DNA of 64,000 nucleotides from Parcubacteria group bacterium Gr01-1014_30 (GCA_007376185.1 VMFS01000001.1:94206-158205), one strand, 5' to 3'; counted from the stretch's first letter, positions 4,756 to 55,328 are shown. The notes: generated by a model not told the origin, from the sequence alone. Made by a program: numbers and translations.

Positions 4756-4756
4756 T

Positions 4757-8570: not shown

Positions 8571-8573
8571 GGG

Positions 8574-20257: not shown

Positions 20258-20531
20258 CGCGCGCGTTTTTTGAGCTAACTCCCATTTGGGGTATTGACAA
20301 ATTTAGGGAGAAGCGTATTTTAAAAATATGACAAATCAATTTGAAAAACCTCAAAAATCTGCTCAAGAGGCATCATCGCCGCCTTCGGCGGCGATGACCA
20401 AACCGCCACCTCTTCTGAAAATTCTGAATCGGATCTGCCGCTGGGATAAAAACTGCCAAAGAACCTGATAAAAATATCGGCTCGAACCATATAAATAAAA
20501 GAAACTTTTAATAAATTAATTTTATAAACAT

Positions 20532-21158
20532 ATGTCATTTGAACAACCATCTCCCGAACAAATAGGAGCACAATCAGAAGAACAGAGTTTAACGCCCGAA
20601 CAAAGAGAAGCAGAACGGGCAAAGTTTGAATCAGCATTTATTCCAGTGTTAAGAAAAGCTGTCGTTGAAACATATGAGGATGAAAATTATGCGCGTTCAC
20701 ATCATTTAAATCCTATTGATTTTGAAAGAAAGGGGATAGAGGCGGCAAAGGACGTTACTTTAGAAGTAAAATACAACGATGACGGTACTGTGAACGATAC
20801 TAATTATCGGCTTGGCGGTTATACGCCAGAACGTAATAAAACTTGGAATGCTTTTATGAAAGCTCAAAGTGAAAGTGGTTCTGACGAAGGAGCTAAAACT
20901 TTTAAGCGAGAAATGTTGCTTAAAGAAAAGGAACAAAATGAACAAAGTAGACAGTATGCCAAAGAACAAGTACGAGATTTAGAAAAGCGTTATGATGCCG
21001 TTGCTAGAGATCCTGAAAATCCAAATATTTTACGTTCATCTGAGGAGGGAAATAAATTATTGAGAGCCATTAATGAGTGGAAAGAAAAACTAGAAATGCA
21101 CAGGAATAGAAATGGTGGTTTATCTACAGAATTATCACGCCTAGAACTTTCAAGATAA
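20532..21158 (+). CDS. hypothetical acidic protein in an AT-rich inserted segment
   Basis: The ORF has lower GC than its neighbours. The segment is flanked by 18-bp direct repeats. Confidence 0.4.
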   Translation: MSFEQPSPEQIGAQSEEQSLTPEQREAERAKFESAFIPVLRKAVVETYEDENYARSHHLNPIDFERKGIEAAKDVTLEVKYNDDGTVNDTNYRLGGYTPERNKTWNAFMKAQSESGSDEGAKTFKREMLLKEKEQNEQSRQYAKEQVRDLEKRYDAVARDPENPNILRSSEEGNKLLRAINEWKEKLEMHRNRNGGLSTELSRLELSR

Positions 21159-21460
21159 ATTTTATTTCCACCTATTATTTTGTAAAAGAGTTTGCCGCCA
21201 GAGAAAAATTTATCTTTCGATGAGGCTCAGGACAATGGTGAGCTTGTCGAACCATTGAAATCGTCGCCTCGCTTTGCGAGGCGGCATCTGTGAATTTGAC
21301 CTTTTCCATTTGGCAGGGGAACTGCGGTTTGACTCTCAGAACGTGAACGACGATTTAAGTTATTTTACCAGGACTGGCGGTCTTAGAGGAAAAGTTCGTC
21401 AACTTTTGTTAGGTGAAGCTTTGTCTGGCGAATAATCTTTTGAGAAGCGCGTTTTTTGAG

Positions 21461-29035: not shown

Positions 29036-29045
29036 CAAACCTTTA

Positions 29046-29118
29046 TGCGCCCGGCAGGACTCGAACCTGCAGTCTCTTCCTCCGCAGGGAAACGCTTTAT
29101 CCATTAAGCTACGGGCGC
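29046..29118 (-). tRNA. tRNA-Arg (anticodon GCG as read, unusual)
   Basis: The reverse complement folds as acceptor GCGCCCG/CGGGCGC, D arm GCTT-AATGGATA-AAGC, anticodon loop CTGCGGA, T arm GCAGG-TTCGAGT-CCTGC. Confidence 0.65.
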
Positions 29119-29279
29119 AACCTGTTTTATGATACCGCCAAGGCCGCTTTACTTCAAGCCCCGTATATCATCTTCGACAGGATTTTCTTTTAGAAAATCC
29201 TGTAATCGCGAAGCGAGTCGAAGTTGTATTACGGGGCAAGGTTGACTTAGTTTATTTTAATAGGTAAGATATAGCCATT

Positions 29280-29414: not shown

Positions 29415-29576
29415 ATGAGTATGTGGTACACGTATGTGCTTCTTTGCGATCAGAAAACTTTTTATGTAGGAGTTACAGATAACCCTGTAGCGAGGATAGG
29501 TCAACATAGAAATAGAAAACCACTTTTTACTAAAAAGTTTTTCCCACCTCCTCCGCTTTCTGGAGGGTTCGCCTAA
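29415..29576 (+). pseudogene. truncated GIY-YIG nuclease gene remnant running into tRNA-Ser(TGA)
   Basis: Translation MSMWYTYVLLCDQKTFYVGVTDNPVARIGQHRN is the GIY-YIG N-terminal motif. Compare the intact paralogue at 48518-48775. The ORF stops after 54 aa inside the tRNA. Confidence 0.6.
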
Positions 29577-29646
29577 TGGTATGGCACCGCTCTTGAAAAG
29601 CGGCGGACGAAAGTCCTTAGAGGTTCGAGTCCTCTACCCTCCGCCA
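29562..29646 (+). tRNA. tRNA-Ser (anticodon TGA) with encoded CCA
   Basis: Acceptor GGAGGGT/ACCCTCC. Anticodon stem-loop CCGCT-CTTGAAA-AGCGG. Long variable arm. Ends GCCA. Confidence 0.75.
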
Positions 29647-29776
29647 GTTATCAACCATTGTCTTCTTGCACTAGAATAACCGAAATAATAAAATGAAATC
29701 AGGACATTTCTGCCGGACTTGTTGGGGAGTCCAGGTCTATTTGAAGCATCATAATAAGAATTTTAACTTTTTTATT

Positions 29777-30715
29777 ATGAAAAAATTACTGCTAACTTTT
29801 TTATTGATAGTTTTTGTATTTCTATTTTTACTCGCATTTCAAGCCAATGCCGTAACCACGCTCTTTATTAAGGGTGACAGTTCAGAAATAAGTGGAGTAA
29901 CCAATGGTTCAATTTTAACACCCAATGTACGTCCGGCTTTATTAGTAGGAACAGTTATTGTTAAAGGTACAGGATCAGTCAACTTTGCTCCAGCTAATAC
30001 TGGAGATGGTGTATTTTTTAAGTTTGGAGGAGCGCAAAATGTAAATTCGGCTTTCTACAGACTGGTTGGAAACGGCGTTGGCGATGTATTTAATTCTAAT
30101 CAAGGTGATATAATTTTTTATTTAAAATCTAATTATAGCTTTGCCGAAAGAAAAGCCCTAACTGACCCCCCTCCTATAGGTAGTTATGTCTTTGATGTTG
30201 TTGATGGAAATAATATAAAATTTTATAAATTTTATGTTTTAACAAGCGAGGTTGGAAAATTATCTTTTGTTTATCAGGTAAATGGTTCGTCTGATATTAC
30301 TTACGAAGTGCCAGCTGGTCAAGAAGATGTATTTTTTGGAAAAGACGTAATTTTAAAAATCCACATAAGCTGGATTGGGAATACAGTCTCTTTGTATTTA
30401 AACCAAAACCTCGTTAATGCCACTAATTACACACCTCAAACTCCCAATTGGACAAGTATTTCCGGAATAATTATAGGAGCTGCTCAGGGCGGTTTTTTTG
30501 CTTCACCTGATATTATAGATGATTTTTTTGTTGGAGAACCAACTCCTACACCTACTCCTACGCCAACTCCTACGCCAACTCCAATACCAAGAATATATAG
30601 CCAGACCTCAGATTTTTTCGACGCCACTACTGTTCATCCAGAAGCCAAGGGATTTCAATTAGCCGACTATGACCCCGTAAGTAAAAAGGTTGTCTTTTAT
30701 CCATGGGGGGGGTGA
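29777..30715 (+). CDS. N-terminal part of a large secreted surface protein (signal peptide, lectin-like region, PT-repeat linker); frame broken at a G8 tract
   Basis: The internal ATG at 29777 gives MKKLLLTFLLIVFVFLFLLAFQANA. A (PT)n linker follows. The ORF ends at a TGA created by the G8 run at 30705-30712. Confidence 0.6.
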   Translation: MKKLLLTFLLIVFVFLFLLAFQANAVTTLFIKGDSSEISGVTNGSILTPNVRPALLVGTVIVKGTGSVNFAPANTGDGVFFKFGGAQNVNSAFYRLVGNGVGDVFNSNQGDIIFYLKSNYSFAERKALTDPPPIGSYVFDVVDGNNIKFYKFYVLTSEVGKLSFVYQVNGSSDITYEVPAGQEDVFFGKDVILKIHISWIGNTVSLYLNQNLVNATNYTPQTPNWTSISGIIIGAAQGGFFASPDIIDDFFVGEPTPTPTPTPTPTPTPIPRIYSQTSDFFDATTVHPEAKGFQLADYDPVSKKVVFYPWGG

Positions 30716-33659
30716 AGGCGATAATCCCCGTGGTGTTATATTATCTTATCAAACCGATAAAAACTTTTTAGATAAAACAAGCTACGAAGCTTCTGACCTC
30801 ACCCAGTTAATCGCCCCAGAAGCTGAGGGCTTTGGCGCCGGCTGCCTAGGTACAAATGGGTGGTTTTATCTCCCAGCCAATAGAAAAGATGTAGGAAGCG
30901 GAATCCAGGCCAATACCTTAATGGTCCGCTATCTAGGAACTAGGTCAGTCACCGACCGCTCTGCCTATGAGACCTTTGATGTAGCAGTATTAGGTATGCC
31001 TAGCACCGGTTGGGCGCCTTGCATCTACCTTAACGGCTTCATCTATTACAGCCCGATTCTCCAGAAAGGAAGCACTAAAGTTCTCCACGGTATCTTCCTA
31101 AGGTATAACACCAGCCTTGCCTTTGATAATCCCTTAGCTTGGAGTTGGTATGACATTAAAACAAATGTTAATTCCAGAGCTCACGCTTTTCAATCAATGG
31201 CTGCGAAATATCCTTATGTTTATCTGATTCCTTTTGGTGTAGGTGAAAGCTTAATAGTTCGCTATGACGTCACAAAACCCTTTAACTCCCCTTCTTCTTA
31301 CGAAACTTTTGACATTGCCACCCTCAATCCTAATGTAAAAGGTCCGACAGGAGGAATAGTAGTTGGCAATACTCTCGTCCTCGTTCCCTGGAGAAATCTT
31401 TCCAAGCCATCTGGCACTCAACAAATCATGAGCACGTCTGCTGCTTATGACACTACTAAATCATTATCTGATTCAACTGCCTGGAAATTTTTCGATACCA
31501 CCACCATCGACCCTAATGCTAAAGGCTACCAATTCGGCTGGGCTGATAAGAATAGCTTTGTTCACTTTGTTCCCCAGCAGAGAGGTCATGGCCGCGTTCC
31601 GCCGTTTATTGTTTGGGATGGAGAGGGGATTTTCGATAACGCTTCATTCTGGAAAACCTATAGTAGTTCGGGTGTAAAGCCATCTACTGGTGCTGCCTAT
31701 GACGGTGAGAGTACCGCTTGGCTTGCTCCTTATGGCAGCGATGGAGATAGCGGTCTTATTACCCGCGTAAATATGGCGTATTCTGTAACTCCACCGCCTG
31801 GAGGCGGAGGCGGTGGAGGAGGAGGAGGCGGAGGAAGCGAAATTCCAGATATTACACCGCCATCGCAGGTTAGCAATTTTCAGGCCGAAGGTGCATATTC
31901 TCAGGTTTCTCTTTCTTGGACTAATCCCTCTTCTACGGACTATGCTGGAATTATAATTGTAAGAAAAGATGGTTCCACTGCTTCAAATATTAATGACGGA
32001 ACCAAGATATATGAAGGAACTGGTCAATCTTTTGTTGATACAGGTATTGTTGGCGGGCGCACCTATTACTATTCAGCCTTTACATTTGATAGTATCCCTA
32101 ACTACTCTTTTCCAGTGACTATCGTAAGTACTGCCTCCGATATTTCTGATATTCAAGTCAAAAATATTACTGACACAACGGCTATTATAACTTGGATAAG
32201 CAGTAATCCATCATCATCTAAAGTTAACTATGGGTTAACTTCAGCCTATTCATTTTCGACATTAAAGGATAATAATTTGATTACTAATCATTTAGTAATC
32301 CTAGGCAACTTAAATCCATCGACTAGTTATCATTTTCAGGTTGAATTCGCGGACTCTTTAAATCAGACGTCTATCTCCGATGATTATATTTTCACTACTG
32401 AAGCATTAACTATCCTACCCAAAATAAGTAATCTTAAAGTTTTAGAAATAACTAAAAATTCCGCTAAAATAACTTGGGATACAGACAAAGCATCCGATTC
32501 ACAAGTTGAATATGGTTTGTTCCCTACTTATGGATTAATTACTTCTTTAGACACTAATTTAGTGACTAATCATGGCATTATCCTGGCCAGTCTTTCCGAG
32601 GGCACTACTTATCATTTCAGAGTTAAATCAGGGGGAAGCGTGTCTATAAACAATACTTTTGAAACCAATCAATCTATCTCGACAGATATTACTTCGCCTT
32701 CAAAGATAACAGATCTTAAAGTTGAAGATTCAACAGAAACTTCTGTAACTTTGAGTTGGATTAGCCCAGGAGATGATGGTGTAATAGGGGTTGCCTATAG
32801 CTACGATATGCGTTGGAGTAATTCTGAAATTACTGATTTTAATTGGCAATTTGCAAAAAAGCTTGATGGATTGCCAATGCCTCTGACTTCGGGCAGAAAA
32901 CAAATTTATGATGCTATTTTTTTGAATCCCGACACAACATACTATTTTGCCATCCAGGTAAAAGATGAGGCTAATAATATATCTTTATTGTCTGAATATG
33001 TACAGGCAAAGACAAAACCAAAACAAGAAATCAGCGATTTAACTCCTGCTGGTCAGGTTAAAATTGAAAAATCAATAGGGGCTGACAGACAGGTAATTAT
33101 TGAATGGATAAATCCCTCTGACAGCGATTTTGCCAGAGTAATAATTGTATTTAAACCGGACAAAGCACCGAATAGTATAGCTGATGGCAATAATGTCTTT
33201 AATGGCAAAGATACAAAATATACCCAAATTAATTTAGAAAACGGAAAGACATACTTTTTTGCCCTTTATACCGTAGATCTTGCCGGGAATTATTCTCCTC
33301 CAGTTATCTTTAAGGTTGTTCCTAAGGCAGAAGTTACTTACTTTTCAGAAGTTAAACCGACAAATTTTGATCAAGTTACGCCATTTACTCCTCCTTCTCC
33401 AAAAACAGCAATCGCCATAACTAAAAGCCTAAGCTTTGGTTCAAGAGGAGATGAAGTTAAAAGGCTTCAAGAATTACTCTCTTTAGACTCTTCTATTTAT
33501 CCCCAAAAACTAGTGACTGGCTACTTTGGTTCTCTTACCAAGGCTGCGGTTCAAAAGTTCCAGTGCAGCCAGAAAATTGTTTGTTCAGGCACAGAAACAA
33601 CTACTGGTTATGGCCGAGTCGGTCCCAAGACCAGAACTAAATTAGATGAGGTTTTTTAA
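30690..33659 (+). CDS. C-terminal part of the same surface protein: Gly13 linker, FN3-like repeats, C-terminal peptidoglycan-binding domain
   Basis: Repeated ITWxSxxPSSSxVxYG...TxYHFxV modules are FN3-like. The C-terminal GDEVKRLQELL...GYFGSLTKAAVQKFQ is PG_binding_1-like. The ORF has no ATG and begins inside the G-run overlap. Confidence 0.6.
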   Translation: MSFIHGGGEGDNPRGVILSYQTDKNFLDKTSYEASDLTQLIAPEAEGFGAGCLGTNGWFYLPANRKDVGSGIQANTLMVRYLGTRSVTDRSAYETFDVAVLGMPSTGWAPCIYLNGFIYYSPILQKGSTKVLHGIFLRYNTSLAFDNPLAWSWYDIKTNVNSRAHAFQSMAAKYPYVYLIPFGVGESLIVRYDVTKPFNSPSSYETFDIATLNPNVKGPTGGIVVGNTLVLVPWRNLSKPSGTQQIMSTSAAYDTTKSLSDSTAWKFFDTTTIDPNAKGYQFGWADKNSFVHFVPQQRGHGRVPPFIVWDGEGIFDNASFWKTYSSSGVKPSTGAAYDGESTAWLAPYGSDGDSGLITRVNMAYSVTPPPGGGGGGGGGGGGSEIPDITPPSQVSNFQAEGAYSQVSLSWTNPSSTDYAGIIIVRKDGSTASNINDGTKIYEGTGQSFVDTGIVGGRTYYYSAFTFDSIPNYSFPVTIVSTASDISDIQVKNITDTTAIITWISSNPSSSKVNYGLTSAYSFSTLKDNNLITNHLVILGNLNPSTSYHFQVEFADSLNQTSISDDYIFTTEALTILPKISNLKVLEITKNSAKITWDTDKASDSQVEYGLFPTYGLITSLDTNLVTNHGIILASLSEGTTYHFRVKSGGSVSINNTFETNQSISTDITSPSKITDLKVEDSTETSVTLSWISPGDDGVIGVAYSYDMRWSNSEITDFNWQFAKKLDGLPMPLTSGRKQIYDAIFLNPDTTYYFAIQVKDEANNISLLSEYVQAKTKPKQEISDLTPAGQVKIEKSIGADRQVIIEWINPSDSDFARVIIVFKPDKAPNSIADGNNVFNGKDTKYTQINLENGKTYFFALYTVDLAGNYSPPVIFKVVPKAEVTYFSEVKPTNFDQVTPFTPPSPKTAIAITKSLSFGSRGDEVKRLQELLSLDSSIYPQKLVTGYFGSLTKAAVQKFQCSQKIVCSGTETTTGYGRVGPKTRTKLDEVF

Positions 33660-33763
33660 AATAGAGCACTAAATAAACACTGCTATTTATCAACACTCAT
33701 TTTTATCTTTGAAGATTTGCTGTCTTATTAAAACTTAATTATATTTAAATCAATCAATTTTTA

Positions 33764-34921
33764 ATGTTAAAGCAAAAGGGTATAACAACTACTCAAACTA
33801 TATTGATTATTGCAGTAATATTGCTATTGATTTTAATTATTAGCAGAGCTAATCGCAGACAAGACTTACAAGAAGGAGTTCCCGAAGAGATAGATATCGA
33901 TATTCCCGGAAGCATGGTTAAGAAAATTTCACTATTGGCAACGAGTTCATATGCCGGCAGAGTGGACTGGTCGCATGCAAATAACCTTATCGCATTTTCT
34001 AAAGTCGGCGACGACGGCTATGCAGATATCTATACTATGAATTCGGATGGTTCAAATAAAACCTGTTTGACTTGCGGCGCAGTCGGTGTTCCGCAGTTTT
34101 ATAACGACCAGCCGGTGTGGCACCCATCCGGAGACTATATTATCTTTCAAGCCCAGGATCCCAATTTAAGTTCTCTGTCTACGTATTTGGTGCAAGGCGG
34201 CGCAGGACTTAATAATAATTTATGGGCCATAAGTAAAGACGGACAGCGGTCCTGGCAGTTGACGCACATTGAGGATAGGGAAGCAACACTTCATTCGCAT
34301 TTTTCTCATGACGGTAAAAAGTTGCTTTGGGCGGCTCGAGAATTGCAAGACGGCAAGAAAGCCCAGTGGATGCTTAAAATCGCTGATTTTATCGTGGATG
34401 GCGGCGGCCCTCGTTTAGCCAATGAAAAAACCTATCAGCCAATGGGCGAAAATGTATTCTACGAAAGCCATAGTTTTACTCATGATGGTCAAAAGATTAT
34501 TTTTTCGGCCAGTTACACTGCCCCGGCTTTTGATTTGGATATTTATATTTTGGATCTTCGAACCAATAAGCTCACCAACCTGACCAATTCTCCCGGAGAG
34601 TGGGATGAACATTCTATTCTTTCTCCCAACAACAGATTAGCTTGGATATCAAGCAAAGGATACTCATTCACCCCCTCCGCGAATTGGGGCGCAACTCTTA
34701 AAACCGATCTCTGGCTTATGAATCTGGACGGAAGCAATAAAACAAAGGTTACTCACTTTAATGAGCCGGGCTATCCGGAATATGAGAGCGGGAAAAGGGT
34801 GATTGCTGCTGATAATTCTTGGAACAAAACCGGAGATAAGCTAGTATTAACTCTTGGCGTAATAAAAGGTAAAACCGTTGGCAGTAGGGTAGTATTAGTG
34901 GAATTTAACAGTCCTCAATGA
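33764..34921 (+). CDS. TolB-like beta-propeller (PD40 repeat) secreted/membrane-anchored protein
   Basis: N-terminal TM helix. Repeated xDGSNKTxLT/WHPSGD PD40-like blades. Paralogue of 38778-40019. Confidence 0.55.
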   Translation: MLKQKGITTTQTILIIAVILLLILIISRANRRQDLQEGVPEEIDIDIPGSMVKKISLLATSSYAGRVDWSHANNLIAFSKVGDDGYADIYTMNSDGSNKTCLTCGAVGVPQFYNDQPVWHPSGDYIIFQAQDPNLSSLSTYLVQGGAGLNNNLWAISKDGQRSWQLTHIEDREATLHSHFSHDGKKLLWAARELQDGKKAQWMLKIADFIVDGGGPRLANEKTYQPMGENVFYESHSFTHDGQKIIFSASYTAPAFDLDIYILDLRTNKLTNLTNSPGEWDEHSILSPNNRLAWISSKGYSFTPSANWGATLKTDLWLMNLDGSNKTKVTHFNEPGYPEYESGKRVIAADNSWNKTGDKLVLTLGVIKGKTVGSRVVLVEFNSPQ

Positions 34922-35049
34922 TTAAAACTGGTTGCCGTCGCCGCCCTGCCCGCCGAAGTCTACCTACTCCGCCGAAGTAGCTTCAGCTACGAAGGCCGGG
35001 CAACGCAGGCGGGGCCCAGCCAGTTCTGTTCGGATATTTTCAAACAGAC

Positions 35050-35227
35050 ACCGCCAGTTGGGAAATGAAGCACTTGGCTCGCCCGCTCCCACTTCGCCCT
35101 TCGGGCTACGAGGGACAAGTACGCGGGCTCGCCATCCGTTTTTCGGGGAAATTTCAAGCCGTTTTGCCTGCCCGCCGAAGCCTTGGCGCAGGCGGGAATT
35201 CAGTAAGGCCAGAAGCGGGCTTTTCTT
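35050..35227. repeat. GC-rich structured element, copy 1 (about 180 bp; UUCG-capped and GC-stem hairpins)
   Basis: Near-identical to 36230-36375 apart from a 33-bp indel. Much higher GC than the surroundings. Confidence 0.6.
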
Positions 35228-35244
35228 TACGGAATGGAAATTTT

Positions 35245-35292
35245 TTGATATCATAAATTTGAAATCATAATCCGTGATTTGATGATATCAAA
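35245..35292. promoter_or_regulatory. palindromic operator-like site upstream of the XRE regulator gene
   Basis: Inverted repeat TTTGATATCAT...ATGATATCAAA ends 12 bp before the ATG at 35304. Confidence 0.45.
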
Positions 35293-35303
35293 GTTTTGAA
35301 ACT

Positions 35304-35501
35304 ATGGCAACAATAGGTGAAAATATCAAAAAATACCGCAACAAACTTAGCATGACACAAGACGATCTAGTGAGAAAGTCCGGTGTGAAGCACACGACCC
35401 TTACGAAAATCGAAGGCGATTTTGTAAAAAAGCCAAGTGTTCAAGTGATAGCAAAAATCTCTAAAGCGTTGGGCGTACCAATGGAAGATTTGATAAAATA
35501 A
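35304..35501 (+). CDS. XRE-family (Cro/C1-type) helix-turn-helix transcriptional regulator
   Basis: IKKYRNKLSMTQDDLVRKSGVKHTTLTKIE is the canonical HTH_XRE. Confidence 0.8.
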   Translation: MATIGENIKKYRNKLSMTQDDLVRKSGVKHTTLTKIEGDFVKKPSVQVIAKISKALGVPMEDLIK

Positions 35502-35507
35502 AAAGGT

Positions 35508-36095
35508 ATGCAGAAAAATCTCGAAAACAACAAAATTATTATCATTACTCTTTCACTTTTAGCTGTACTTGGTGTTTTTTACTTTTATTGGAAATCTGGA
35601 AAGTCTTCAAGTATCAACGAGAATGTTGTGACTGAAAAAATAGTATTTGAGGCGGTTCCTAAAAATTATTTAGAATGTATGGAAACCGAAAATAAATATA
35701 ATTTTCGAAACAGAAATCGGTCAATGCTATCCTGTTCATATACAGTTTTTCCTGAAGAGATACCGAACATCGATCCCCAAGCGGTAGATAAAAACAAATA
35801 TGATGAATGTGTAAAAGAAAAAGGTCATCCAATTTCTTTTGCTGGAGATTGCTCATTTTTATTTTACAACCCAGATTATACATTTCCACAAAGTTTTAGA
35901 GAATGTGTCGATGAGAAAAAAGGAGAATTTACTACTTCCGTTAGACCTCGCTGTATGATTAATATTACTGTTTTAGGTGCCGCAAATGTTGATGTAGCCA
36001 ACAACTTAATCAATAAATGCGTAGCTTTGGGAGGGATGTATAGCGAAGAATTTGGTCGTCAATGCTACATAGAATTCGATGAAAGTAATCTATAG
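35508..36095 (+). CDS. Cys-rich secreted/membrane-anchored hypothetical protein
   Basis: N-terminal TM/signal helix and about 10 Cys. Co-transcribed with the XRE gene. Confidence 0.45.
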   Translation: MQKNLENNKIIIITLSLLAVLGVFYFYWKSGKSSSINENVVTEKIVFEAVPKNYLECMETENKYNFRNRNRSMLSCSYTVFPEEIPNIDPQAVDKNKYDECVKEKGHPISFAGDCSFLFYNPDYTFPQSFRECVDEKKGEFTTSVRPRCMINITVLGAANVDVANNLINKCVALGGMYSEEFGRQCYIEFDESNL

Positions 36096-36229
36096 GTCTG
36101 TTGTTAATAAGAATTTGCCGCCAAAGAAAAACTTGAAATTGTTAATGTTCGCGGCTTCGCAGCGCGGATTTCTGCCCGCCACCCACGCCGCCTTCGGCGG
36201 CGAATTCCGTTCGAGCTATTTTTAGAATA

Positions 36230-36375
36230 CACCGCCAGTTGGGAAATGAAGTCATTGGCTCGCCCGCTACGCGGGCTCGCCAGCCGTTTTTCGGGGAAAT
36301 TTCAAGCCGTTTTGCCTGCCCGCCGAAGCCTTGGCGCAGGCGGGAATTCAGTAAGGCCAGAAGCGGGCTTTTCTT
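36230..36375. repeat. GC-rich structured element, copy 2
   Basis: See copy 1. Lies about 175 bp upstream of the gene at 36550. Confidence 0.6.
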
Positions 36376-36549
36376 GAAAGAATTAAGATTTTTTGATATC
36401 GTAATCTTGAAAGCATCTTATGACAAGTTATTGCTAAAATTGCAAAGGCATTAGGTGTTGATATAGAATAGAAGATATGATAAAAAAGGTTTATACTGTG
36501 GATGAAGTCGACTCTACAATGAAATTAATAAGACCATTAAATAAAAAGT

Positions 36550-37665
36550 ATGTCAGAAGTAAATAACAATAATCGTATGAAGCAGACTTCTAACGGGGTG
36601 AAGTTTTTTGTAACACTGTTTATTATTACATCGTTCATTTTCGTCGGAGGAAGTGCCATAGCCCAGGATCAGCAAGTGGCGTTGCCTTCAGCTGGTCTTA
36701 CCCCCGAAAGCTCCTTTTATTTTATTGACAGATTCGGAGAAGCACTGCGTGAGTTTTTCACTTTTAATCCAGATGGTAAAGCCCGCCTTCAGATCACTTT
36801 TGCCGCCGAACGAGTTGCCGAGATAAAAGTTATTCTTGAAACAAAGGGCGTTCAAGCGCCGGGCCTCGAAGTTGCCCAAAGCCGCCTGCAAGCGCATCTT
36901 GCTAATGCCGCCACCATCGTTACTGAACAAAAAGCAAAAGGAAAAGATGTGAGCCAACTTGCCAAAGAGCTGAACGATGAGTTTGGAAGTTCCAAAACCG
37001 CTCTTCGGCAAAGTTTCAAAGCAAAAGAGCGAGCATTAGAAACTCAAGAAAAAGATTTGAAAGCAAAAATCCGTGAAGCACGGATTGCCGGCGACGCCGC
37101 CCAAGTTGAGGCGTTAGTTAAGCAATTAGGAGAAGTCAAAGCGCAAAAAGACCTTTTGGAACTTAGAGAAAAGGAGCAGGAAGAAGCGTTAGAGCGGGAA
37201 GAAGAAAAGATTGAGCGGGAGATGGATAAAAAAGAGGATGCCCAAAAAGCCATAAAAGAAGCTGAAGAAGAAAAGCAGGAAGTATTGGATGAGGCCGCCG
37301 AGGAGGGTGTTGATGTTCCTGCAGAAGCGTTTGAAAAATTTGACCGCCTCCTTACTCAAGCCAAAGAACTCTTTGCCAAAGAGAACTATGTCGGCGCGAA
37401 ACAATTAGCCAAGCAGGCAGAAAAAAGCCTTGAAAAAGTAGAGGAGGCAATTGAAGATTTGGAAGAAGCAAAAGAGAAAGAGGAAGAATTAAAAGAGGAA
37501 CAAGAGGAGAAAGAGCGCGAGGCTAAAGAAGAGCAGGAAGAAAAAATAAAGGAAGAGGCGGAAAAGGAAGCCGAACGATTAGAAAAAGAAAGAGAAAAAG
37601 CCGAAGAGGATGCGCGTAAAGCCGAAGAGAGATTGCGTGAAGCAGGAAATGAAGACGAAGATTAA
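36550..37665 (+). CDS. secreted E/K-rich coiled-coil protein
   Basis: Signal/TM helix followed by about 250 aa of EK-rich heptad-like sequence. Confidence 0.5.
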   Translation: MSEVNNNNRMKQTSNGVKFFVTLFIITSFIFVGGSAIAQDQQVALPSAGLTPESSFYFIDRFGEALREFFTFNPDGKARLQITFAAERVAEIKVILETKGVQAPGLEVAQSRLQAHLANAATIVTEQKAKGKDVSQLAKELNDEFGSSKTALRQSFKAKERALETQEKDLKAKIREARIAGDAAQVEALVKQLGEVKAQKDLLELREKEQEEALEREEEKIEREMDKKEDAQKAIKEAEEEKQEVLDEAAEEGVDVPAEAFEKFDRLLTQAKELFAKENYVGAKQLAKQAEKSLEKVEEAIEDLEEAKEKEEELKEEQEEKEREAKEEQEEKIKEEAEKEAERLEKEREKAEEDARKAEERLREAGNEDED

Positions 37666-37725
37666 TTTTTAGAGATATTTTCAAACAGACATCGCCCTTG
37701 ACAGCGTTATACCAGAGTATATACT

Positions 37726-38010
37726 ATGGTTAGTATGGAGAAAACAATACTTAACGTTAAAACCGATAAAAAATTGAAGGAAGCTGCGCAAAAAGCCGCA
37801 CAGGAGCTTGGCTTGCCTCTTGGCACCATAGTTAACGCCTACCTTCGTGAGTTGGCGCGCGAAAAAAGAATACTATTTTCCGTTCCTCCCGTGCCAAATC
37901 TGCGATTACAAAGGCTCTTAAAAAAGGTTAGAAAAGAAACGAGTAAAAGCAGGAGACGCGCGAAGCCATTTACTTACGAGGAGGCAGTTAAATATCTGGA
38001 TAGATTATGA
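37726..38010 (+). CDS. type II antitoxin, RelB/DinJ (ribbon-helix-helix) family
   Basis: LNVKTDKKLKEAAQKAAQELGLPLGTIVNAYL is RHH-like. Stop overlaps the toxin start. Confidence 0.7.
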   Translation: MVSMEKTILNVKTDKKLKEAAQKAAQELGLPLGTIVNAYLRELAREKRILFSVPPVPNLRLQRLLKKVRKETSKSRRRAKPFTYEEAVKYLDRL

Positions 38011-38267
38011 AAGTTAGCTTTCATAACCGTTTCAATAAAAGTTATAAGAGATGTCCCGCAAAAGTTCAGAAACAATTTAAGAAACGGCTCAAGTCATTCC
38101 TTGAAAACCCGTATAATCCTTTATTAGAAAACCATGCGCTCGGAGGCGACTGGCAGGATTTTCGCAGCATCAACGTAACCGGGGATTATCGCGCCCTCTA
38201 TTATCATTTGGTAGACGACACTGTAGAATTTTTTATAATTGATACGCACAGCAATTTGTACGGGTAG
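38007..38267 (+). CDS. type II toxin, RelE/ParE/YafQ family mRNA interferase
   Basis: LGGDWQDFRSINVTGDYRALYY...FFIIDTHSNLY matches the RelE-fold motifs. Confidence 0.7.
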   Translation: MKVSFHNRFNKSYKRCPAKVQKQFKKRLKSFLENPYNPLLENHALGGDWQDFRSINVTGDYRALYYHLVDDTVEFFIIDTHSNLYG

Positions 38268-38471
38268 AAGGTTAAAGGAATAAAAAATTCCTTCACCCAA
38301 ATTTTTGCTCCATTTCATTCCGCAAAAACTTCGCATACTCTTAAACGTTATATCAAAAAGAATTTGCCGCCAAAGAAAAACTTGTGGTTCGACAAGCTCA
38401 CCATCCTGAACGAAGTTGAAGGAAAATTGTTAATGTCCGCCTCTGGTTGTTATGGTATACTTTAAAATAAT

Positions 38472-38771
38472 ATGATTCAATCATACCAAAACAGCGCAAG
38501 AAAAGCAGGATTCACATTCCTGCTCTTAAACTTAATTGCACTTATTTTAGCTCGCCAGCATATATGGCTTTGGCTTAGGATCAATCCTCTGGGTAAAGTA
38601 TTTTTGGCCGCAATAATTATTAGTGCTTTTGTTTGGTATTATAACTTTGCAAAAGCCAAAGGATACTCCGGTTGGCTTTCGCTCTTAGGCTTGTTGCACC
38701 TAGTAGGTTTTATTATTATTTTGTTATTACCCGATAAAACCAAACAATTAAATTCTACTGTCAAGCAATAA
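38472..38771 (+). CDS. small integral membrane protein
   Basis: Three predicted TM helices. Confidence 0.4.
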   Translation: MIQSYQNSARKAGFTFLLLNLIALILARQHIWLWLRINPLGKVFLAAIIISAFVWYYNFAKAKGYSGWLSLLGLLHLVGFIIILLLPDKTKQLNSTVKQ

Positions 38772-38777
38772 GTTCCT

Positions 38778-40019
38778 ATGAAAAAAGTTTTAATTATCGG
38801 CGTTTTTGTCATTTTAGCCCTTGTCGCATTGGGTTTGATTGGCAACATAAGAAAGGGGGAAGAACTTACTCCTGAACCGACACCTTCTCCAACACCAACA
38901 CCAGCTGATAGTTCCGTACCGACTCCAACCCCAACTCCTATTAAAGGAGCCCAGAACGACAGAATAGAAAGTATGAGAGTTATTCTTGAGGAAGGCGCCC
39001 GGCCAAGATTTTCGCCTGATGGCCAGTATTTTCTCTTTGACCGCAGGAATAGTAACGACCTTTATGCCGATCTTTATGTTTCTGATTTAAACGGCGGGAT
39101 AGTTACCAGATTAACTGAAGGGCGGGAAGGAGTAAACCAGCGCAATAACGGCAATGGTGTATATCATTCAAGTAAGAATTATATTATCTTTATTTCTGAA
39201 GAATCAGGCCACTACTTGGATGACGACAAGTGGTTGGCTGATCCCGGAATTGGTCTTTTTTCTAACCTTTACGCCACCGATTTTTCTGGAAGCAGATTCT
39301 GGAAGCTTACCGATATTCCGATCAAGAAAGCATTAGGAGATGGGATTCCGGCTACGGCCACAGTCAACCCTCATTTCCTGAAAAACGGAACTCTAATCTG
39401 GACTGAACGCTACGCAGAAGGCGGAAATTTAAATTGGGGAAAATGGCGGCTAAAGGCGGCTGATTTTGTTGAAGAAAATGGAGTTCCCAAATTAATAAAC
39501 ACGCGGGTAGTATACACCCCGGCTAATGGAAATTATGTAACTTTCATGGGCGAGCTTGATTCGGACAACTGGGTTGTTTCCGGCAACCTTAACGGCCAGC
39601 ACGAATATGGAATGGACCAGTATGTCCTTAATATCAGAAATGGCTCGCTTAAAAATCTTACCAACACGCCCGAATACTGGGAAGAAGATTCAAGTCTTAC
39701 TCCAAGCGGCAAGATCGTCTATATGAGCAACATTGATTCGCAGTATAAGTTTGATTTTACCAAAGACTGGGTTATCCAGAAAGTGGAAAGGGATTACTAC
39801 ATAACCGACAGGAACGGCGGGCAAAAAGAAAGATTGACTTTCTTTAACGAGCCGGGTGCGGTGGAGAAATCAGAATATGCCATTCTATCCGTGGCTGCTG
39901 ATATCAGCCCTGACGGCAAGTATATGGCCGGAACAGTCGGAGTGCAATTCGGTGCAGGGAAAGATCGAGGGAGAATAGTCTTGAAAATAGTATTGATTAA
40001 GTTTAAAAATCCGTTTTAA
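38778..40019 (+). CDS. TolB-like beta-propeller (PD40 repeat) protein, paralogue 2, with PT-rich linker
   Basis: TM helix, PTPSPTPTP linker, and PD40-like blades (YVSDLNGGIVTRLTEG; YITDRNGGQKERLTFFNEPG). Confidence 0.55.
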   Translation: MKKVLIIGVFVILALVALGLIGNIRKGEELTPEPTPSPTPTPADSSVPTPTPTPIKGAQNDRIESMRVILEEGARPRFSPDGQYFLFDRRNSNDLYADLYVSDLNGGIVTRLTEGREGVNQRNNGNGVYHSSKNYIIFISEESGHYLDDDKWLADPGIGLFSNLYATDFSGSRFWKLTDIPIKKALGDGIPATATVNPHFLKNGTLIWTERYAEGGNLNWGKWRLKAADFVEENGVPKLINTRVVYTPANGNYVTFMGELDSDNWVVSGNLNGQHEYGMDQYVLNIRNGSLKNLTNTPEYWEEDSSLTPSGKIVYMSNIDSQYKFDFTKDWVIQKVERDYYITDRNGGQKERLTFFNEPGAVEKSEYAILSVAADISPDGKYMAGTVGVQFGAGKDRGRIVLKIVLIKFKNPF

Positions 40020-40024
40020 AATAA

Positions 40025-40654
40025 ATGCGCCTTCTAAAATCACAATTTGGATTAACATTCTCGCTTCTATACATTTTTGGGAGTGTATACCTAATAGCTA
40101 CACAAGGGCTATTCGGGGAAAGTTTTATCGCTGTTACTCTTGGATTGCCCTGGAGTTTTATTTTGGTCTTATCTCGCATTAGTGTTCCTGTATATATTTA
40201 TGTCCTTGCGCCCATAGTTTTAAATATAATTCTTCTGTACTATCTTGGCGTTGGCATTCAGAAGTTACTTCCCATAAAGTACAAAGTAGCGGGAATAATA
40301 GTCGCTGGTTTCATATTTGGTTCAATCATCTTATCTTTTGTTGTTTCCCTTGGATTTAAGGGTGTGCCAATCTTCGAAAGTCTAGCGCCGTTAGGTGCGC
40401 CTGGAATGTTTGTTTCCGAACAGTTGATTACGACGAAAGAGGGTTCTAACACTCGACTGATAATTAATCCGGGCAATGACGCAGCGAAATCAATCCAAGA
40501 CTTGATACAACAGAGACAAGGAAAGCCAACCCCTCTTGCTTGGATCGTAATAACGATTATCAATGGAATAGTCTACTCATTTCTATTCTGGCTCTTTTAT
40601 CTTTTAGCGGGCAGAATGGTTAGTAATGCGTATATCGGTGCTGAAGGTGTATAG
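40025..40654 (+). CDS. polytopic membrane protein, hypothetical
   Basis: Five to six TM helices. Confidence 0.4.
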   Translation: MRLLKSQFGLTFSLLYIFGSVYLIATQGLFGESFIAVTLGLPWSFILVLSRISVPVYIYVLAPIVLNIILLYYLGVGIQKLLPIKYKVAGIIVAGFIFGSIILSFVVSLGFKGVPIFESLAPLGAPGMFVSEQLITTKEGSNTRLIINPGNDAAKSIQDLIQQRQGKPTPLAWIVITIINGIVYSFLFWLFYLLAGRMVSNAYIGAEGV

Positions 40655-40738
40655 AATATTCGATGATAAAAACAAAAAGCAATAAGTATAAATTTGCCGC
40701 CAAAGCACAAAATTTGAGCAATTTCAAGAATACACCGC

Positions 40739-41404
40739 TTATTCTCTTGCTACAGTTATTCCCCAAACCTCTTTGGCGCCGCTTTCTTTTAAAACACGGG
40801 CGGCTTCTTCCATGGTTGAGCCGGTTGTGAAAACGTCGTCAACCAGAAGAACAGTTTTCTTTTTTATTGCCTCGGCATTTTCGCAAAAGAAAACGTCCTT
40901 GACGTTTTGAATTCTTTCCTGTTTTGATAACTCTACTTGCGGCATAGTTTCTTTTGTTTTTAGCAAAACGTTATTTACTAGAGGCACTTTCAATTGTTTG
41001 GACAATTCTCTGCCGATTTCTTCTGCTTGGTTGAAACCTCGCTGTCTTAACCGTTTTCGAGTCAAAGGAATTGGTATGATTAGGATTTGCCCCCCACCGC
41101 TTTTGGCCAAAAGCGGTGGGGGGTATTCGGTTTGTTCAAACTGATGTATAATTAAACCGGCCAGAGTTGAAGCCAGATCCTTGACAAACGGGTTGTACTT
41201 AAATTGCGCGATTAGTTTTTTTACTATAAAATTATTGTAAGGCGAGGCGGAGATTAGCAATTTCAGGTTTTTGGATTTATAATGAGAGCGGGGGAGAAAT
41301 TCAATCATTGCAAAACAATCCTCGCACAAATAGCTTCTTTCTTTCTGACAATTTTGGCAGAACTTTGGAAAGAATAAATCCGCAAGAAAGGTTTTGAGCG
41401 ACAT
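40739..41404 (-). CDS. comFC: ComF-family protein (ComFC, phosphoribosyltransferase-like)
   Basis: N-terminal CxxC...CxxC zinc ribbon. C-terminal PRTase motif LLVDDVFTTGST. Confidence 0.8.
   Translation of the reverse strand: MSLKTFLADLFFPKFCQNCQKERSYLCEDCFAMIEFLPRSHYKSKNLKLLISASPYNNFIVKKLIAQFKYNPFVKDLASTLAGLIIHQFEQTEYPPPLLAKSGGGQILIIPIPLTRKRLRQRGFNQAEEIGRELSKQLKVPLVNNVLLKTKETMPQVELSKQERIQNVKDVFFCENAEAIKKKTVLLVDDVFTTGSTMEEAARVLKESGAKEVWGITVARE

Positions 41405-52183: not shown

Positions 52184-55328
<3,145 letters not shown>

Follow-up and report, generated by a model that had tools for sequence, protein, structure and literature searches.

Since tRNA-Ser(UGA) and comF lie 11.1 kb apart (29647-40738) in the stretch analyzed here, a 64,000-nt window of mostly core genes from Parcubacteria group bacterium Gr01-1014_30, the island at this locus is larger than first noted. 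The region first described is the distal part of an insertion that runs from the 3' end of tRNA-Ser(UGA) to the stop codon of a comF-like gene; its actual start is the tRNA, at 29646, and not 34920, where the initial annotation had placed it. The insertion holds at least four recombinase-less cargo modules, all in the orientation of the tRNA (Table 1), and the earlier description of a modular accessory island with recurring, non-random joints between units was borne out. Unit 0 lies within the insertion yet outside the coordinates first given.

Table 1. Features of the insertion (29562-41404) and of a second, solitary module (20330-21283), in window coordinates
Feature	Coordinates	Strand	Details
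tRNA-Ser(UGA), attachment tRNA	29562..29646	+	ARAGORN, Rfam; 3' end ...CCCTCCGCCA, then GTT
Unit 0 cargo: ORF340, ORF989, ORF385	29647..34921	+	Pfam; ORF989, fn3 + PG-binding surface protein; ORF385, PD40 beta-propeller
GC-rich body, then Rend copy R1, GTTCGGATATTTTCAAACAGACACCGCCA	34922..35056	+	5' motif, exact match
IR' copy 1, then GC hairpin, leader Ld1 (35196-35227)	35057..35227	+	blastn
Unit 1 cargo	35304..36095	+	XRE/HTH_3 regulator 35304-35501 (Pfam HTH_3, E 1e-12); Cys-rich ORF195 35508-36095
Complete spacer, 5' half	36111..36237	+	A at 36111 (3' motif, LSR nt 88-111); B (GAAATTGT); GC-rich body; Rend copy R2, terminating in CCGCCA
IR' copy 2 (36238-36314), then leader Ld1 (36344-36375)	36238..36375	+	sequence match
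Unit 2	36420..37665	+	XRE remnant 36420-36473, 5'-deleted, reading ...IAKIAKALGVDIE*; DUF5667 coiled-coil ORF 36550-37665 (Pfam, E 3e-13)
Rend copy R3 (5' motif), truncated	37674..37696	+	exact match
Unit 3 cargo: relB-like antitoxin, ParE/YafQ/RelE-family toxin	37726..38267	+	Pfam; ParE_toxin E 8e-8, YafQ_toxin E 5e-7; RelB 20.6 bits, under the 22.4 cut-off
Truncated spacer	38360..38442	+	A; 38-nt GC-rich palindromic insert 38385-38422; B; body start
Further cargo: ORF99 (membrane), PD40 protein (413 aa), ORF209 (membrane)	38472..40654	+	
Terminal minimal spacer	40691..40738	+	A first half (AATTTGCCGCCAAAG); Rend copy R4 (..AGAATACACCGC)
comF-like gene	40739..41404	-	convergent; stop codon abutted by the terminal spacer
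Solitary cargo module	20330..21283	+	between VirD4-like gene and uvrB
Degenerate inverted body/Rend	20330-20447		
D-E	20449-20489		equals LSR nt 138-157 plus 1333-1352
ORF208			between D-E and A
A of solitary module	21188-21211		then 45-nt insert
B + hairpin of solitary module	21257-21282		

Comparison of the island content among relatives revealed that the locus varies and that empty sites exist. In 36 of 53 comF relatives, comF and tRNA-Ser(UGA) are at most 130 nt apart, with only a terminator hairpin between them, while the other 17 carry inserts of 165 nt to 9.6 kb. The genes of unit 0 are missing between tRNA-Ser(UGA) and comF in relatives with an empty site. The collections searched contained no close relative (best PilM identity 62%, best ComF 58%, no exact protein match) and yielded neither a circular junction nor a near-identical empty/occupied pair.

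The boundary motifs occur far above chance. An exact 24-mer of the 3' motif is found at 36112-36135 and 38361-38384, and any such match was seen in 0 of 100 shuffles; its 13-nt core, TTTGCCGCCARAG, is expected 0.36 times in the window and is present in four copies, all on the + strand, at 21191, 36114, 38363 and 40693 (four copies reached in 0/100 shuffles). Of the less exact copies, that at 40691 matches in its first 15 nt only and that at 21188 has 3 mismatches. The 3' motif had been placed directly after four stop codons; this placement is approximate, the distances from the stop codons being 29, 15, 92 and 36 nt. The 5' motif is exact at both positions reported (35033-35055 and 37674-37696), and the variants annotated near 36225 and 40726 correspond to exact copies of AGAATACACCGC at 36224 and 40727. 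A third motif, AAATTGTTAATGTYCGC, does follow the 3' motif immediately at 36136, but its second copy (38424) is set off by a 38-nt GC-rich insert, which is found at the same spacer point in three other genomes (L054, L035 and L051). Longer repeats, absent from the initial annotation, pair 35120-35268 with 36268-36416 (149 nt, 93%) and 35019-35087 with 36200-36268.

The sequence of the 3' motif, GAATTTGCCGCCAAAGAAAAACTT, is that of codons 30-37 (EFAAKEKL) in the gene for a large serine recombinase (LSR). The motif-bearing ORF contains the Pfam domains Resolvase, Recombinase and Zn_ribbon_recom, matches PHROG 95 'integrase' with an E value of 1e-78, and has the SPbeta LSR as its nearest solved structure. 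A 21-mer, TTTGCCGCCARAGAAAAAYTT, matches at least 120 genome stretches, the listed titles being mostly Patescibacteria of many classes; about 1 match in 596 Gb would be expected by chance, uniform base composition being assumed. Across these stretches the motif occupies two contexts, inside the LSR gene or just 3' of the stop codons of unrelated cargo genes: among 139 copies of the 13-nt core (120 genome stretches and the window), 33 are internal to a long ORF that reads ...SIEAQLAELKEFAAKEKLEIV..., and of the remaining 106, 78 follow a co-oriented ORF (50 aa or longer) at a distance of no more than 80 nt. Since these genome-contig loci were picked by the motif, it looks more conserved in them than it would otherwise; A was also intact in 4/4 LSR genes fetched independently of the motif (L125, L140, L191, L196).

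A cognate recombinase is present in related genomes, and the statement that the window has no integrase was upheld: tblastn found no intact LSR in it, and no recombinase domain was detected among the 38 ORFs scanned of 48 ORFs of at least 140 aa. Because the window is without an LSR, no recombinase can be assigned to its modules. It does contain LSR fragments, namely nt 88-119 at 36111, nt 88-111 at 38360, nt 121-137 at 21266, and nt 138-157 joined to nt 1333-1352 at 20448-20489. In intact LSR genes, third-codon-position identity is 0.7-1.0 over nt 89-184 and 0.72-0.87 over nt 1325-1360, versus about 0.3-0.5 over most of the ORF, revealing a DNA-level constraint within the ORF over A-D and E. 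The hairpin after B forms at least 6 pairs in 88% of 34 distinct variants versus 5.5% of shuffles, with compensatory changes such as GCCTCGC/GCGAGGC, GCTTCC/GGAAGC and GCCTCTT/AAGAGGC.

A generic promoter, terminator or regulator-binding consensus of the host, which the initial annotation had named as a refutation of its reading, has only a very slight probability. Promoter-like sites do follow each leader (35226-35254 and 36374-36402), and a near-consensus promoter, TTGACA-16-TATACT, lies behind R3 at 37698-37725. The motifs themselves, however, fit neither a promoter nor a terminator consensus and match no Rfam family; their copies in the 64 kb number 4 and 2 (+2), at accessory genes only, and the 3' motif is recombinase coding sequence in relatives, which contradicts the generic reading.

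The 3' and 5' motifs, taken initially as separate cassette ends, instead open and close a single composite spacer. Judged by sequence comparison, this spacer is laid out as A-B-body-Rend / IR'-leader and made from pieces of the LSR gene. A-B-body-Rend is a copy, now diverged, of the LSR gene from nt 88 to about nt 200, beginning with the 3' motif and ending with the 5' motif plus CCGCCA, which is also the terminal hexamer of tRNA-Ser. IR' repeats the final ~100 nt of the LSR ORF in inverted orientation, and the third piece is the LSR leader, after which comes a promoter serving the first cargo gene, which often encodes an XRE regulator. In the window, 34922-35056 aligns collinearly with sequence that precedes the LSR genes of L042 and L108; in the same two, the ~150 nt before the LSR start codon are collinear with 35022-35226 and with 36229-36374. 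Identities of 91-100% (blastn) link 35057-35227 to LSR 3' ends and upstream regions of L042, L108 and L091; its IR' copy 1 is an inverted LSR 3' end carrying a 32-nt insert (35088-35119). IR' copy 2 is 98.8% identical over 83 nt (36232-36314) to the last 83 nt of the L091 LSR ORF, inverted. The preceding spacer half (36111-36237) matches L008 (Yanofskybacteria) at 95% identity over 127 nt and L094 at 94%. Unit 0 has no IR'/leader or A, and units 3 and 4 have truncated spacers. The distal boundary of the island is the terminal spacer; L163, L176 and L194 likewise have Rend 60-110 nt beyond the stop codon of comF. The order of the solitary module matches that of an LSR-adjoining cargo module in L079.

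Rend as a displaced 3' end of the host tRNA was ruled out, only GTTCGR and CCGCCA being in common. Part of Rend may derive from LSR nt ~180-215, and because of this its role as an att arm is a matter of inference.

The initial annotation likened the array to integron, phage moron or shufflon modules; it is a member of none of these. We regard a chromosomal integron, or an integrase-less attC cluster (CALIN) with a tyrosine IntI encoded elsewhere, as extremely improbable. As in integrons, mostly promoter-poor single genes or small operons are co-oriented and each is immediately followed by a structured repeat (100-300 nt between ORFs), the recombinase is divergent from the array in some genomes, and toxin-antitoxin cargo, typical of sedentary integrons, is present. 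However, the recombinase adjoining the arrays in relatives is a serine recombinase and not a tyrosine IntI; there is no attC architecture, the spacer ends being GAATTTGCC... and ...ACACCGCCA rather than RYYYAAC/GTTRRRY inverse core sites; the repeat shares homology with the recombinase ORF, and the array is tRNA-anchored.

It is also improbable that the spacers are MITE-like, non-autonomous LSR-derived repeats spreading by themselves, with ordinary chromosomal genes between them. Small GC-rich palindromic inserts are nested at fixed spacer points, many copies are degenerate or partial, and many matches lie at contig ends, like multicopy repeats. Such spreading would not account for the A copies of the window lying 4/4 on the strand of the upstream gene, the co-orientation of the 78/106 non-LSR copies, arrays anchored at tRNA genes and LSRs, the lack of genes between comF and tRNA-Ser in 36/53 relatives, or the confinement of modules, in 64 kb of mostly core genes, to the island and one solitary cargo gene.

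In related genomes, the intact LSR gene lies against a tRNA 3' end, with near-perfect inverted repeats of ~100 nt on each side and cargo modules beside it. The LSR 3' end overlaps a convergent tRNA gene in 20 of 28 cases (Ser 8, Arg 4, Leu 3, Gln 2, and Ala, Phe and Lys 1 each), and 18 of 25 LSRs have an inverted copy of their own 3' end (71-101 nt, 92-100% identical) 27-102 nt upstream of the ATG. The order inverted cargo module, Rend and leader, then LSR abutting a convergent tRNA was found in L004, L032, L039, L083, L115 and L125, the convergent-tRNA part being scored only where the sequence flank was present; the same upstream grammar occurs in L026, L042, L058, L076, L079, L080, L082, L108, L119, L140, L191 and L196. 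Arrays begin at tRNA-Ser in L117, L105, L100, L120, L054, L008 and L086, and L117 has the leader-XRE arrangement of unit 1 after the real tRNA-Ser. L125 carries an intact LSR and two XRE-headed modules between comF and tRNA-Ser(UGA); an XRE homologue adjoins the LSR in L108, L042, L076, L026 and L125. Cargo is found in either orientation with respect to the LSR body, A being the breakpoint (L091/L111 versus L108/L125). Clustering of the 67 ORFs located immediately 5' of A gave 56 unrelated clusters, and 38 of these 67 ORFs have their stop codon at most 10 nt from A; among the cargo are methyltransferases, an MFS transporter, a P-type ATPase, NAD(P)HX dehydratase and toxin-antitoxin genes. This design appears to be shared by more than 100 species of ultra-small CPR/Patescibacteria.

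Based on directly established sequence identities, module grammar across many genomes, tRNA anchoring and empty sites in relatives, we consider it likely that the island is a tandem stack of recombinase-less cargo modules at a tRNA-Ser attachment site, and that an LSR mobilized or rearranged them by acting at spacers that stem from the LSR gene itself. Junctions of the type (tRNA or Rend)...CCGCCA/IR' flank the intact LSR on both sides in related genomes; at R1 the alignment reads CCGCCA, then GTTGGG. The sequence GTTGGGAAATGAAG... immediately follows CCGCCA in real tRNA-Ser ends (L042, L091, L117, L114, L086) and in Rend copies (twice in the window, and in L042, L108 and L196). This pattern is as expected of serine integrase attL/attR, with IR/IR' as attP arms and the tRNA 3' end as attB arm. 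An LSR would have inserted elements at the tRNA end, and later recombination among repeated arms (Rend/IR' x Rend/IR', A x A, D x D, leader x leader) would have stacked, inverted, duplicated and trimmed modules; the LSR would since have been lost from the locus, or be encoded elsewhere in the genome. We infer that the LSR catalyzed the joints, and likewise the crossover position; the modules in this genome may still be mobile. The joints within the array are all of one hybrid type, Rend/IR' in direct orientation, and to our knowledge canonical serine integrases do not recombine such same-type hybrid pairs without a directionality factor; homologous recombination or duplication could give the same joint pattern.

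Less probably, the LSR unit (IR'-leader-LSR-IR) is an IS-like element at tRNA CCA ends that moves only itself, the spacers being LSR scars; the array would then stem from ordinary duplication, homologous recombination between LSR relics and deletion, its cargo never having been LSR-mobilized. The minimal LSR unit is indeed cargo-free and bounded by the near-perfect inverted repeats. Units 1 and 2, with their 149 nt in common at 93%, resemble the product of a partial tandem duplication, given that the second copy of the XRE gene is truncated; a whole XRE-ATPase-MFS module is tandemly duplicated in L125, and LSR relics with the same internal D/E deletion sit at the native tRNA-side position in L057 and L022. 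Scars would, however, leave unexplained why 56 unrelated cargo ORF families end a few nt from the same A nucleotide, why synonymous sites of A-D and E are frozen in intact LSR genes, and why cargo modules of distant classes have the same ordered arms.

The same design was not found in the literature searched, and the preferred reading, LSR-mobilized cargo modules, has partial likenesses to several known systems. Staphylococcal and enterococcal SCC (CcrAB/CcrC) also involves a large serine recombinase, integration at the very 3' end of a conserved gene, and tandem composite arrays of diverse cargo with recombinase-less units between short repeated integration-site sequences. CcrB was the best or second-best NCBIfam match for two CPR LSRs tested, at 92 bits against an equivalog cut-off of 900. 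SCC differs in targeting rlmH rather than a tRNA CCA end and in its ~20-bp direct repeats, in contrast to the 130-300 nt recombinase-gene mosaics found here, where the recombinase gene lies between 100-nt inverted repeats and the host range is Patescibacteria. Islander-type genomic islands likewise start at a tRNA 3' end, have empty sites in relatives and an integrase adjoining the tRNA (here, in relatives), and show tRNA-3'-end-like sequences between successive units. Their enzyme is a tyrosine integrase, whereas here it is a serine enzyme, insertion follows CCA and leaves the tRNA unsplit, and Rend is element-borne and only partly tRNA-like.

Hin/Gin-type segments have inverted sites on both sides of the recombinase gene, whose 5' coding region contains a cis-acting enhancer. 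Inverted repeats flanking the recombinase gene, a conserved candidate cis-element in the 5' part of the ORF, and cargo in both orientations around A are similar, although Hin/Gin combine a small invertase with 26-bp inverted repeats and the present system a large serine recombinase with ~100-nt inverted repeats; no inversion within a single population was seen. Finally, the spacers carry palindromic insertions of 20-57 nt at fixed points, and one such palindrome lies in frame within the intact LSR ORF of L196. They resemble Rickettsia palindromic elements and similar small palindromic repeats, but those seen here are GC-rich in an AT-rich genome, at only two target points.

The island that the initial annotation had proposed at 34920-40740 was drawn around two short motifs, and their positions were borne out by exact-match searching of the window. 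The 24-nt 3' motif, hereafter A, has exact copies at 36112-36135 and 38361-38384, and its 13-nt core occurs four times, always on the + strand (21191, 36114, 38363 and 40693), against an expectation of 0.36 and with no shuffle reaching this count; the copy at 40691 has only 15 nt in common with the full motif. The 5' motif, hereafter Rend, is exact at 35033 and 37674 and occurs as a variant, AGAATACACCGC, at 36224 and 40727, while a third motif, B, lies at 36136 and 38424. The copies of A do lie downstream of stop codons, but the gaps measure 29, 15, 92 and 36 nt, so that their earlier placing "directly after the stop" is loose. Two longer repeats had not been listed, 35120-35268 against 36268-36416 (93% identity) and 35019-35087 against 36200-36268. 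The window (GC ~0.42) belongs to a Patescibacteria (CPR) genome and includes DUF5667, a comF-like gene, type IV pilus genes and RtcB; no large serine recombinase (LSR) was found within its 64 kb, nor any recombinase domain in the 38 scanned of its 48 ORFs of at least 140 aa, in agreement with the previous statement that it holds no integrase.

When TTTGCCGCCARAGAAAAAYTT was scanned against one genome per species, it matched at least 120 genome stretches, with ~1 expected by chance on our own estimate. The matches listed are mostly Patescibacteria of many classes; the isolate or proteobacterial matches (L005, L017, L068) have no further similarity and resemble chance background. Among the matches listed, 33 of the 139 copies of the core lie in frame within a long ORF (...SIEAQLAELKEFAAKEKLEIVASLCEAKTAKEPGR...) and the other 106 are intergenic, 78 of these following a co-oriented ORF at a distance of at most 80 nt. 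The long ORF that contains A encodes an LSR (~494 aa) in which Resolvase, Recombinase and zinc-ribbon domains were identified (Pfam PF00239, PF07508 and PF13408 in L038, L196 and L125), and their order, an N-terminal resolvase catalytic domain followed by the Recombinase and zinc-ribbon domains, is that of the LSR family. The protein matches PHROG 95 "integrase" (E 1e-78), its closest PDB chain is the SPbeta LSR, and its best NCBIfam matches, CcrB and XisF, are both far under the cut-offs. That the motifs are a generic regulatory consensus, the case which the initial annotation had itself named against a cassette island, is contradicted by this coding context, by a consensus scan that put neither motif in a promoter or terminator, and by the Rfam null. 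A structured RNA was also considered and set aside, with no Rfam matches at gathering or E<=1 thresholds and with folding of two spacers not clearly better than that of shuffles (z -2.4 and +0.3). A phage origin was likewise dropped: among 2.9 M viral contigs the scanned 21-mer is matched once, by chance, with neither LSR nor other module alongside.

The genome-contig loci among the relatives compared here (L-numbers) were chosen by A itself, and modules were named by nucleotide position in the LSR gene with L038 as the reference (see table). For 20 of 28 LSR genes, the 3' end runs into that of a convergent tRNA gene, the tRNAs being Ser, Arg, Leu, Gln, Ala, Phe and Lys. In 18 of 25 loci the LSR ATG is preceded, at a distance of 27-102 nt, by an inverted copy of IR, termed IR', which measures 71-101 nt and is 92-100% identical to IR; Rend (GTTCGRNYWWTTTYNRANAYACCGCCA) sits upstream of IR'. 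CCGCCA ends both the real tRNA-Ser 3' ends and the Rend copies, with the start of IR' (GTTGGGAAATGAAG...) directly after, and the Arg/Leu-targeting subfamily has a common joint, ..ACCA/GTACGG or ..ACCA/CCGAG. Given the repeats and these junctions, the LSR unit is therefore flanked by a tRNA-like end joined to IR' on one side, (tRNA or Rend)..CCGCCA/IR', and, in inverted orientation, by IR joined to a tRNA end on the other, IR/TGGCGG..(tRNA). The attL and attR sites of serine integrases are hybrid sites, and on this basis the flanks look like attL and attR if IR and IR' serve as attP arms and the tRNA end as an attB arm. At sequence level the locus matches what LSR-mediated integration would leave, an element between hybrid flanks B-P' and P-B' whose P/P' and B/B' pairs form imperfect inverted repeats, IR and IR' being 92-100% complementary. 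A tRNA-gene island would have a direct repeat of the tRNA 3' segment at its distal boundary; Rend has GTTCGR and CCGCCA in common with tRNA-Ser, but its stems are replaced by AT-rich sequence and its spacing is 5 nt longer. The GC-rich body plus Rend was rejected as a pseudo-tRNA, being undetected by ARAGORN and Rfam and having no T-arm pairing.

Features of the LSR locus (nucleotides of the LSR gene, L038) and of the reread window (window positions)
Sequence	Feature	Position	Content or neighbours
LSR locus	Leader (Ld)		
LSR locus	N	1-87	catalytic Ser in YARKST
LSR locus	A	88-111	3' motif
LSR locus	B		GAAATYGTC, after A
LSR locus	Hairpin	121-137	
LSR locus	D	138-157	
LSR locus	Second hairpin, then ORF core		after D
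LSR locus	E	1333-1360	
LSR locus	IR		last ~100 nt of the ORF
Window	tRNA-Ser(UGA)	29562-29646	island begins just after it, at 29647
Window	Unit 0		ORF340, ORF989, ORF385; after tRNA-Ser(UGA)
Window	GC-rich body + Rend R1	to 35056	then IR' 35057-35166, Ld1 35196-35227
Window	Unit 1 cargo		XRE + Cys-rich ORF
Window	A-B-body-Rend R2	36111-36237	then IR' 36238-36314, Ld1 36344-36375
Window	Unit 2		truncated XRE + DUF5667 ORF
Window	Rend R3	37674-37696	then promoter, relBE
Window	A	38360	then 38-nt insert, B
Window	ORF99, PD40 protein, ORF209		after B at the 38-nt-insert spacer
Window	Half of A	40691	then Rend R4 40712-40738, comF stop codon 40739
Window	Solitary second module	20330-21283	inverted body/Rend, D-E, ORF208, A, insert, B, hairpin; between VirD4-like gene and uvrB

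Across most of the ORF, third-codon-position identity among 18 aligned LSR units is ~0.3-0.5. It rises to 0.97-1.0 at nt 89-112, a stretch selected by our own query, and to 0.7-0.75 at nt 137-160, 0.6-0.7 at nt 161-184 and 0.72-0.87 at nt 1325-1360, stretches that the query did not select. A is also intact in 4 of 4 LSR genes fetched through comF without use of the motif. Of 34 distinct variants of the hairpin after B, 88% retain at least 6 pairs, a level reached by 5.5% of shuffles, and compensatory changes are seen. This conservation must reflect selection on DNA or RNA, or else continual homogenisation with the spacer copies. The A-B-hairpin-D segment may serve as an accessory binding site, as a site of crossover or of autoregulation within the ORF, or as all three. 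Candidates for a single crossover point (before A, in A at CCAAA/G, between A and B, the hairpin, and CCGCCA) were discarded, several recurrent breakpoints being found instead. Elevated third-position identity (0.7-0.94 vs ~0.3-0.5) was also seen at LSR nt 737-748, 965-988 and 1241-1252 (L038 numbering), which match no spacer module recognised.

Of 150 A sites, 16 carry a GC-rich palindromic insert of 30-57 nt, always at one fixed point where A (..AAAAACTT) meets B (GAAAT..), and these inserts form a few sequence families. Those in the window, 38385-38422 and 21212-21256, share a 20-mer in opposite orientations; others are found in L054, L035, L051, L020, L078, L030, L097, L067, L072, L110, L001, L027 and L037. 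A second fixed breakpoint lies within A (GCCGCCAAA/GAAAAAC). At this point a 21-nt palindrome, CCTGCCTGCCGGCCAGGCAGG, stands in frame in the intact LSR ORF of L196 (10574-10594) and likewise in L191, the Rend of which is interrupted by a near-identical 20-nt palindrome; L125 carries there a 270-nt piece with an 83-aa membrane ORF (5690-5965), and the window copy of A at 40691 is truncated there (40705/40706).

Reread with these modules, the window contains cargo units between tRNA-Ser(UGA) and the convergent comF-like gene, with composite spacers of the form A-B-body-Rend/IR'-leader. Positions 36232-36314 match the 3' end of the L091 LSR, inverted, at 98.8% identity, and 35022-35226 align collinearly with the 150 nt that precede the LSR start codon in L042 and L108. 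Unit 3 is a type II toxin-antitoxin pair of the RelBE/ParDE kind, in which a small antitoxin gene overlaps by 4 nt that of a RelE/ParE-fold toxin; the toxin matches ParE_toxin at 33.2 bits (cut-off 23) and YafQ_toxin at 30.3 bits (cut-off 30), and the antitoxin matches RelB at 20.6 bits, under the 22.4 cut-off. From the leader to the first cargo gene (35226-35330), promoter-like sites and short palindromes such as TGATATCATAAATTTGAAATCATAATCCGTGATTTGATGATATCA are present, as they are in L038 at 3356-3385/4350-4379 (e.g., CAGAAATTCTGGAGAATTTCTG); these could be operators for the XRE regulator.

The insertion site was compared across 80 fetched loci with ComF proteins 44-58% identical to that of the window, 53 of which were used to count the gap between comF and tRNA-Ser. 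No close relative was found, exact-protein matching giving nothing and the best homologues being 62% (PilM) and 58% (ComF) identical. The usual order, PilM-ComF followed by convergent tRNA-Ser(UGA), tRNA-Ser(GCU) and tRNA-Arg(GCG), is also that of the window. In 36 of the 53 loci the gap is at most 130 nt and holds a terminator hairpin only; in the other 17 it ranges from 165 nt to 9.6 kb with differing content. The window gap is 11.1 kb and relatives have the empty site, as in tRNA-gene islands; the island therefore begins at 29647, and the locus is a recurrent insertion site. In L125 an intact LSR lies against tRNA-Ser(UGA), with two XRE-headed modules between the tRNA and comF, and in L140, L175, L191 and L196 it is the neighbouring tRNA-Ser that carries the platform.

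A cargo module of the form D-E-leader-(XRE)-cargo ORFs-A-B- lies next to the LSR in many genomes and continues either with hairpin-D-E-leader (type 1) or with the GC-rich body and Rend (type 2). Arrays of modules start at tRNA-Ser in L117, L105, L100, L120, L054, L008 and L086. The 67 ORFs directly upstream of A form 56 unrelated clusters, with the stop codon at most 10 nt from A in 38 of them, and among the cargo sampled are methyltransferases, an MFS transporter, a P-type ATPase and an NAD(P)HX dehydratase. An LSR without N directly follows a cargo stop codon at A in L091, L111 and L060, while N-A-B-hairpin-D is joined to E in L022, L057 and L033; relative to the LSR body, cargo is therefore found pointing either way, the breakpoint lying inside A-B. 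The D/E joint itself may stem from an internal LSR deletion or from a deletion between neighbouring modules. L125 also holds a whole D-E-leader-XRE-P-type ATPase-MFS transporter module twice in tandem between comF and the LSR (2101-9414), and modules can therefore be duplicated as units. A MITE-like spread of the spacers would be an improbable further reading, MITEs being short non-coding elements with terminal inverted repeats and target-site duplications, scattered in many copies; the L079 cargo module has inverted ends of 89 nt with 98% identity, but the elements here are gene-carrying, polarised and tRNA-linked.

Alongside the observed homology of the spacers to the LSR, the module order, the anchoring at tRNA genes, the variable site occupancy and the cargo diversity, we propose a mechanism in which the LSR would integrate DNA at the CCA end of the tRNA via sites composed of a tRNA-like arm and an IR arm, and arrays would then grow and be reshaped as the repeated arms recombine with one another. 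Within arrays, every joint is of the direct type Rend/IR', and either the LSR or homologous recombination may have made it. Alternatively, and less probably, the LSR may be IS-like and the spacers passive scars. A more far-reaching version of the proposed mechanism, which we consider conceivable and rather improbable, is that Patescibacteria carry a serine-recombinase gene-capture platform, integron-like in function, with a switch at A and flipping inverted repeats. Under this gene-capture reading, the joint after each cargo module (A-B-hairpin-D) would also be encoded, with its frozen synonymous sites and covarying hairpin, within the LSR ORF just past the catalytic N-terminus, and A-to-A inversion or deletion would swap the DNA upstream of A. 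Such a swap would load cargo behind the leader and promoter and would detach the LSR from its catalytic N-terminus, as in the three N-less loci, making a self-limiting switch, and the near-identical 100-nt inverted repeats would let the LSR gene flip beside the tRNA. In invertible switches of the Hin/Gin kind, the recombinase gene lies between inverted recombination sites and a single population has both orientations; here the inverted repeats surround the LSR gene in 18 of 25 loci, and differing arrangements were seen only between different genomes.

The likeness to an integron suggested by the initial annotation holds for the layout only. Membership fails on both counts: there is no IntI with attI at the array head, the window having no recombinase and the relatives a serine enzyme, and the spacers lack the attC architecture (an imperfect palindrome with inverse core sites, RYYYAAC ... 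GTTRRRY). They begin with GAATTTGCCGCC... and end with ...ACACCGCCA, ends that are not inverse to each other, and are homologous to the LSR ORF. An integron is thus contradicted by the serine-type recombinase linked to the arrays in relatives. The closest systems in working are SCC elements and tRNA-gene islands with tandem accretion. As in SCC, units including recombinase-less ones are bounded by repeated integration-site sequences at a conserved gene 3' end, with four direct Rend copies between tRNA-Ser and comF in the window; however, the SCC target gene is rlmH and here it is a tRNA, and the LSR is not a Ccr-family recombinase (NCBIfam CcrB 91.6 bits against a cut-off of 900, CcrA 65.6 against 700).

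No earlier description was found in open-access full text on Patescibacteria, CPR or Saccharibacteria serine recombinases, cassettes, islands or tRNA. As far as this literature shows, it is unusual that spacers are built from the recombinase gene itself, that cis-elements with frozen synonymous sites lie within a recombinase ORF, that near-identical 100-nt inverted repeats surround the recombinase gene with one encoding its C-terminus, and that conservation at the nucleotide level extends over many CPR classes. Much of bacterial diversity belongs to CPR/Patescibacteria, whose genomes are tiny, and the searchable literature holds little on how they acquire genes. One module that is conserved to the nucleotide in many CPR classes and goes with one recombinase family and with tRNA ends would serve as a practical marker of accessory islands, and it would account for many of the breaks in assemblies of CPR genome bins. 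CPR bacteria have almost no genetic tools, and a serine integrase with defined arms and a defined natural target, the tRNA CCA end, could be tried as one; a cis-element in a recombinase ORF is an unusual overlap of protein and DNA codes.

Other features of the window were observed near the island and beyond it. Between tRNA-Ser(GCU) and tRNA-Ser(UGA), positions 29415-29576 hold a 53-aa GIY-YIG nuclease fragment (Pfam E 2.8e-7), the end of which carries CCCACCTCCTCCGC, a copy of the tRNA-Ser(GCU) 3' end; the fragment resembles a further small insertion of the kind found at tRNA 3' ends. At 28964-29119, tRNA-Arg(CCG) (+) and tRNA-Arg(GCG) (-) are convergent with 3' ends 8 nt apart, a natural palindromic pair of tRNA ends, and such a pair flanks a decayed LSR unit in L046. 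Finally, a direct repeat with 83-87% identity (54994-55267 and 63516-63788) reads like an FtsW/RodA-type conserved motif, and the two copies therefore probably belong to two paralogous genes.
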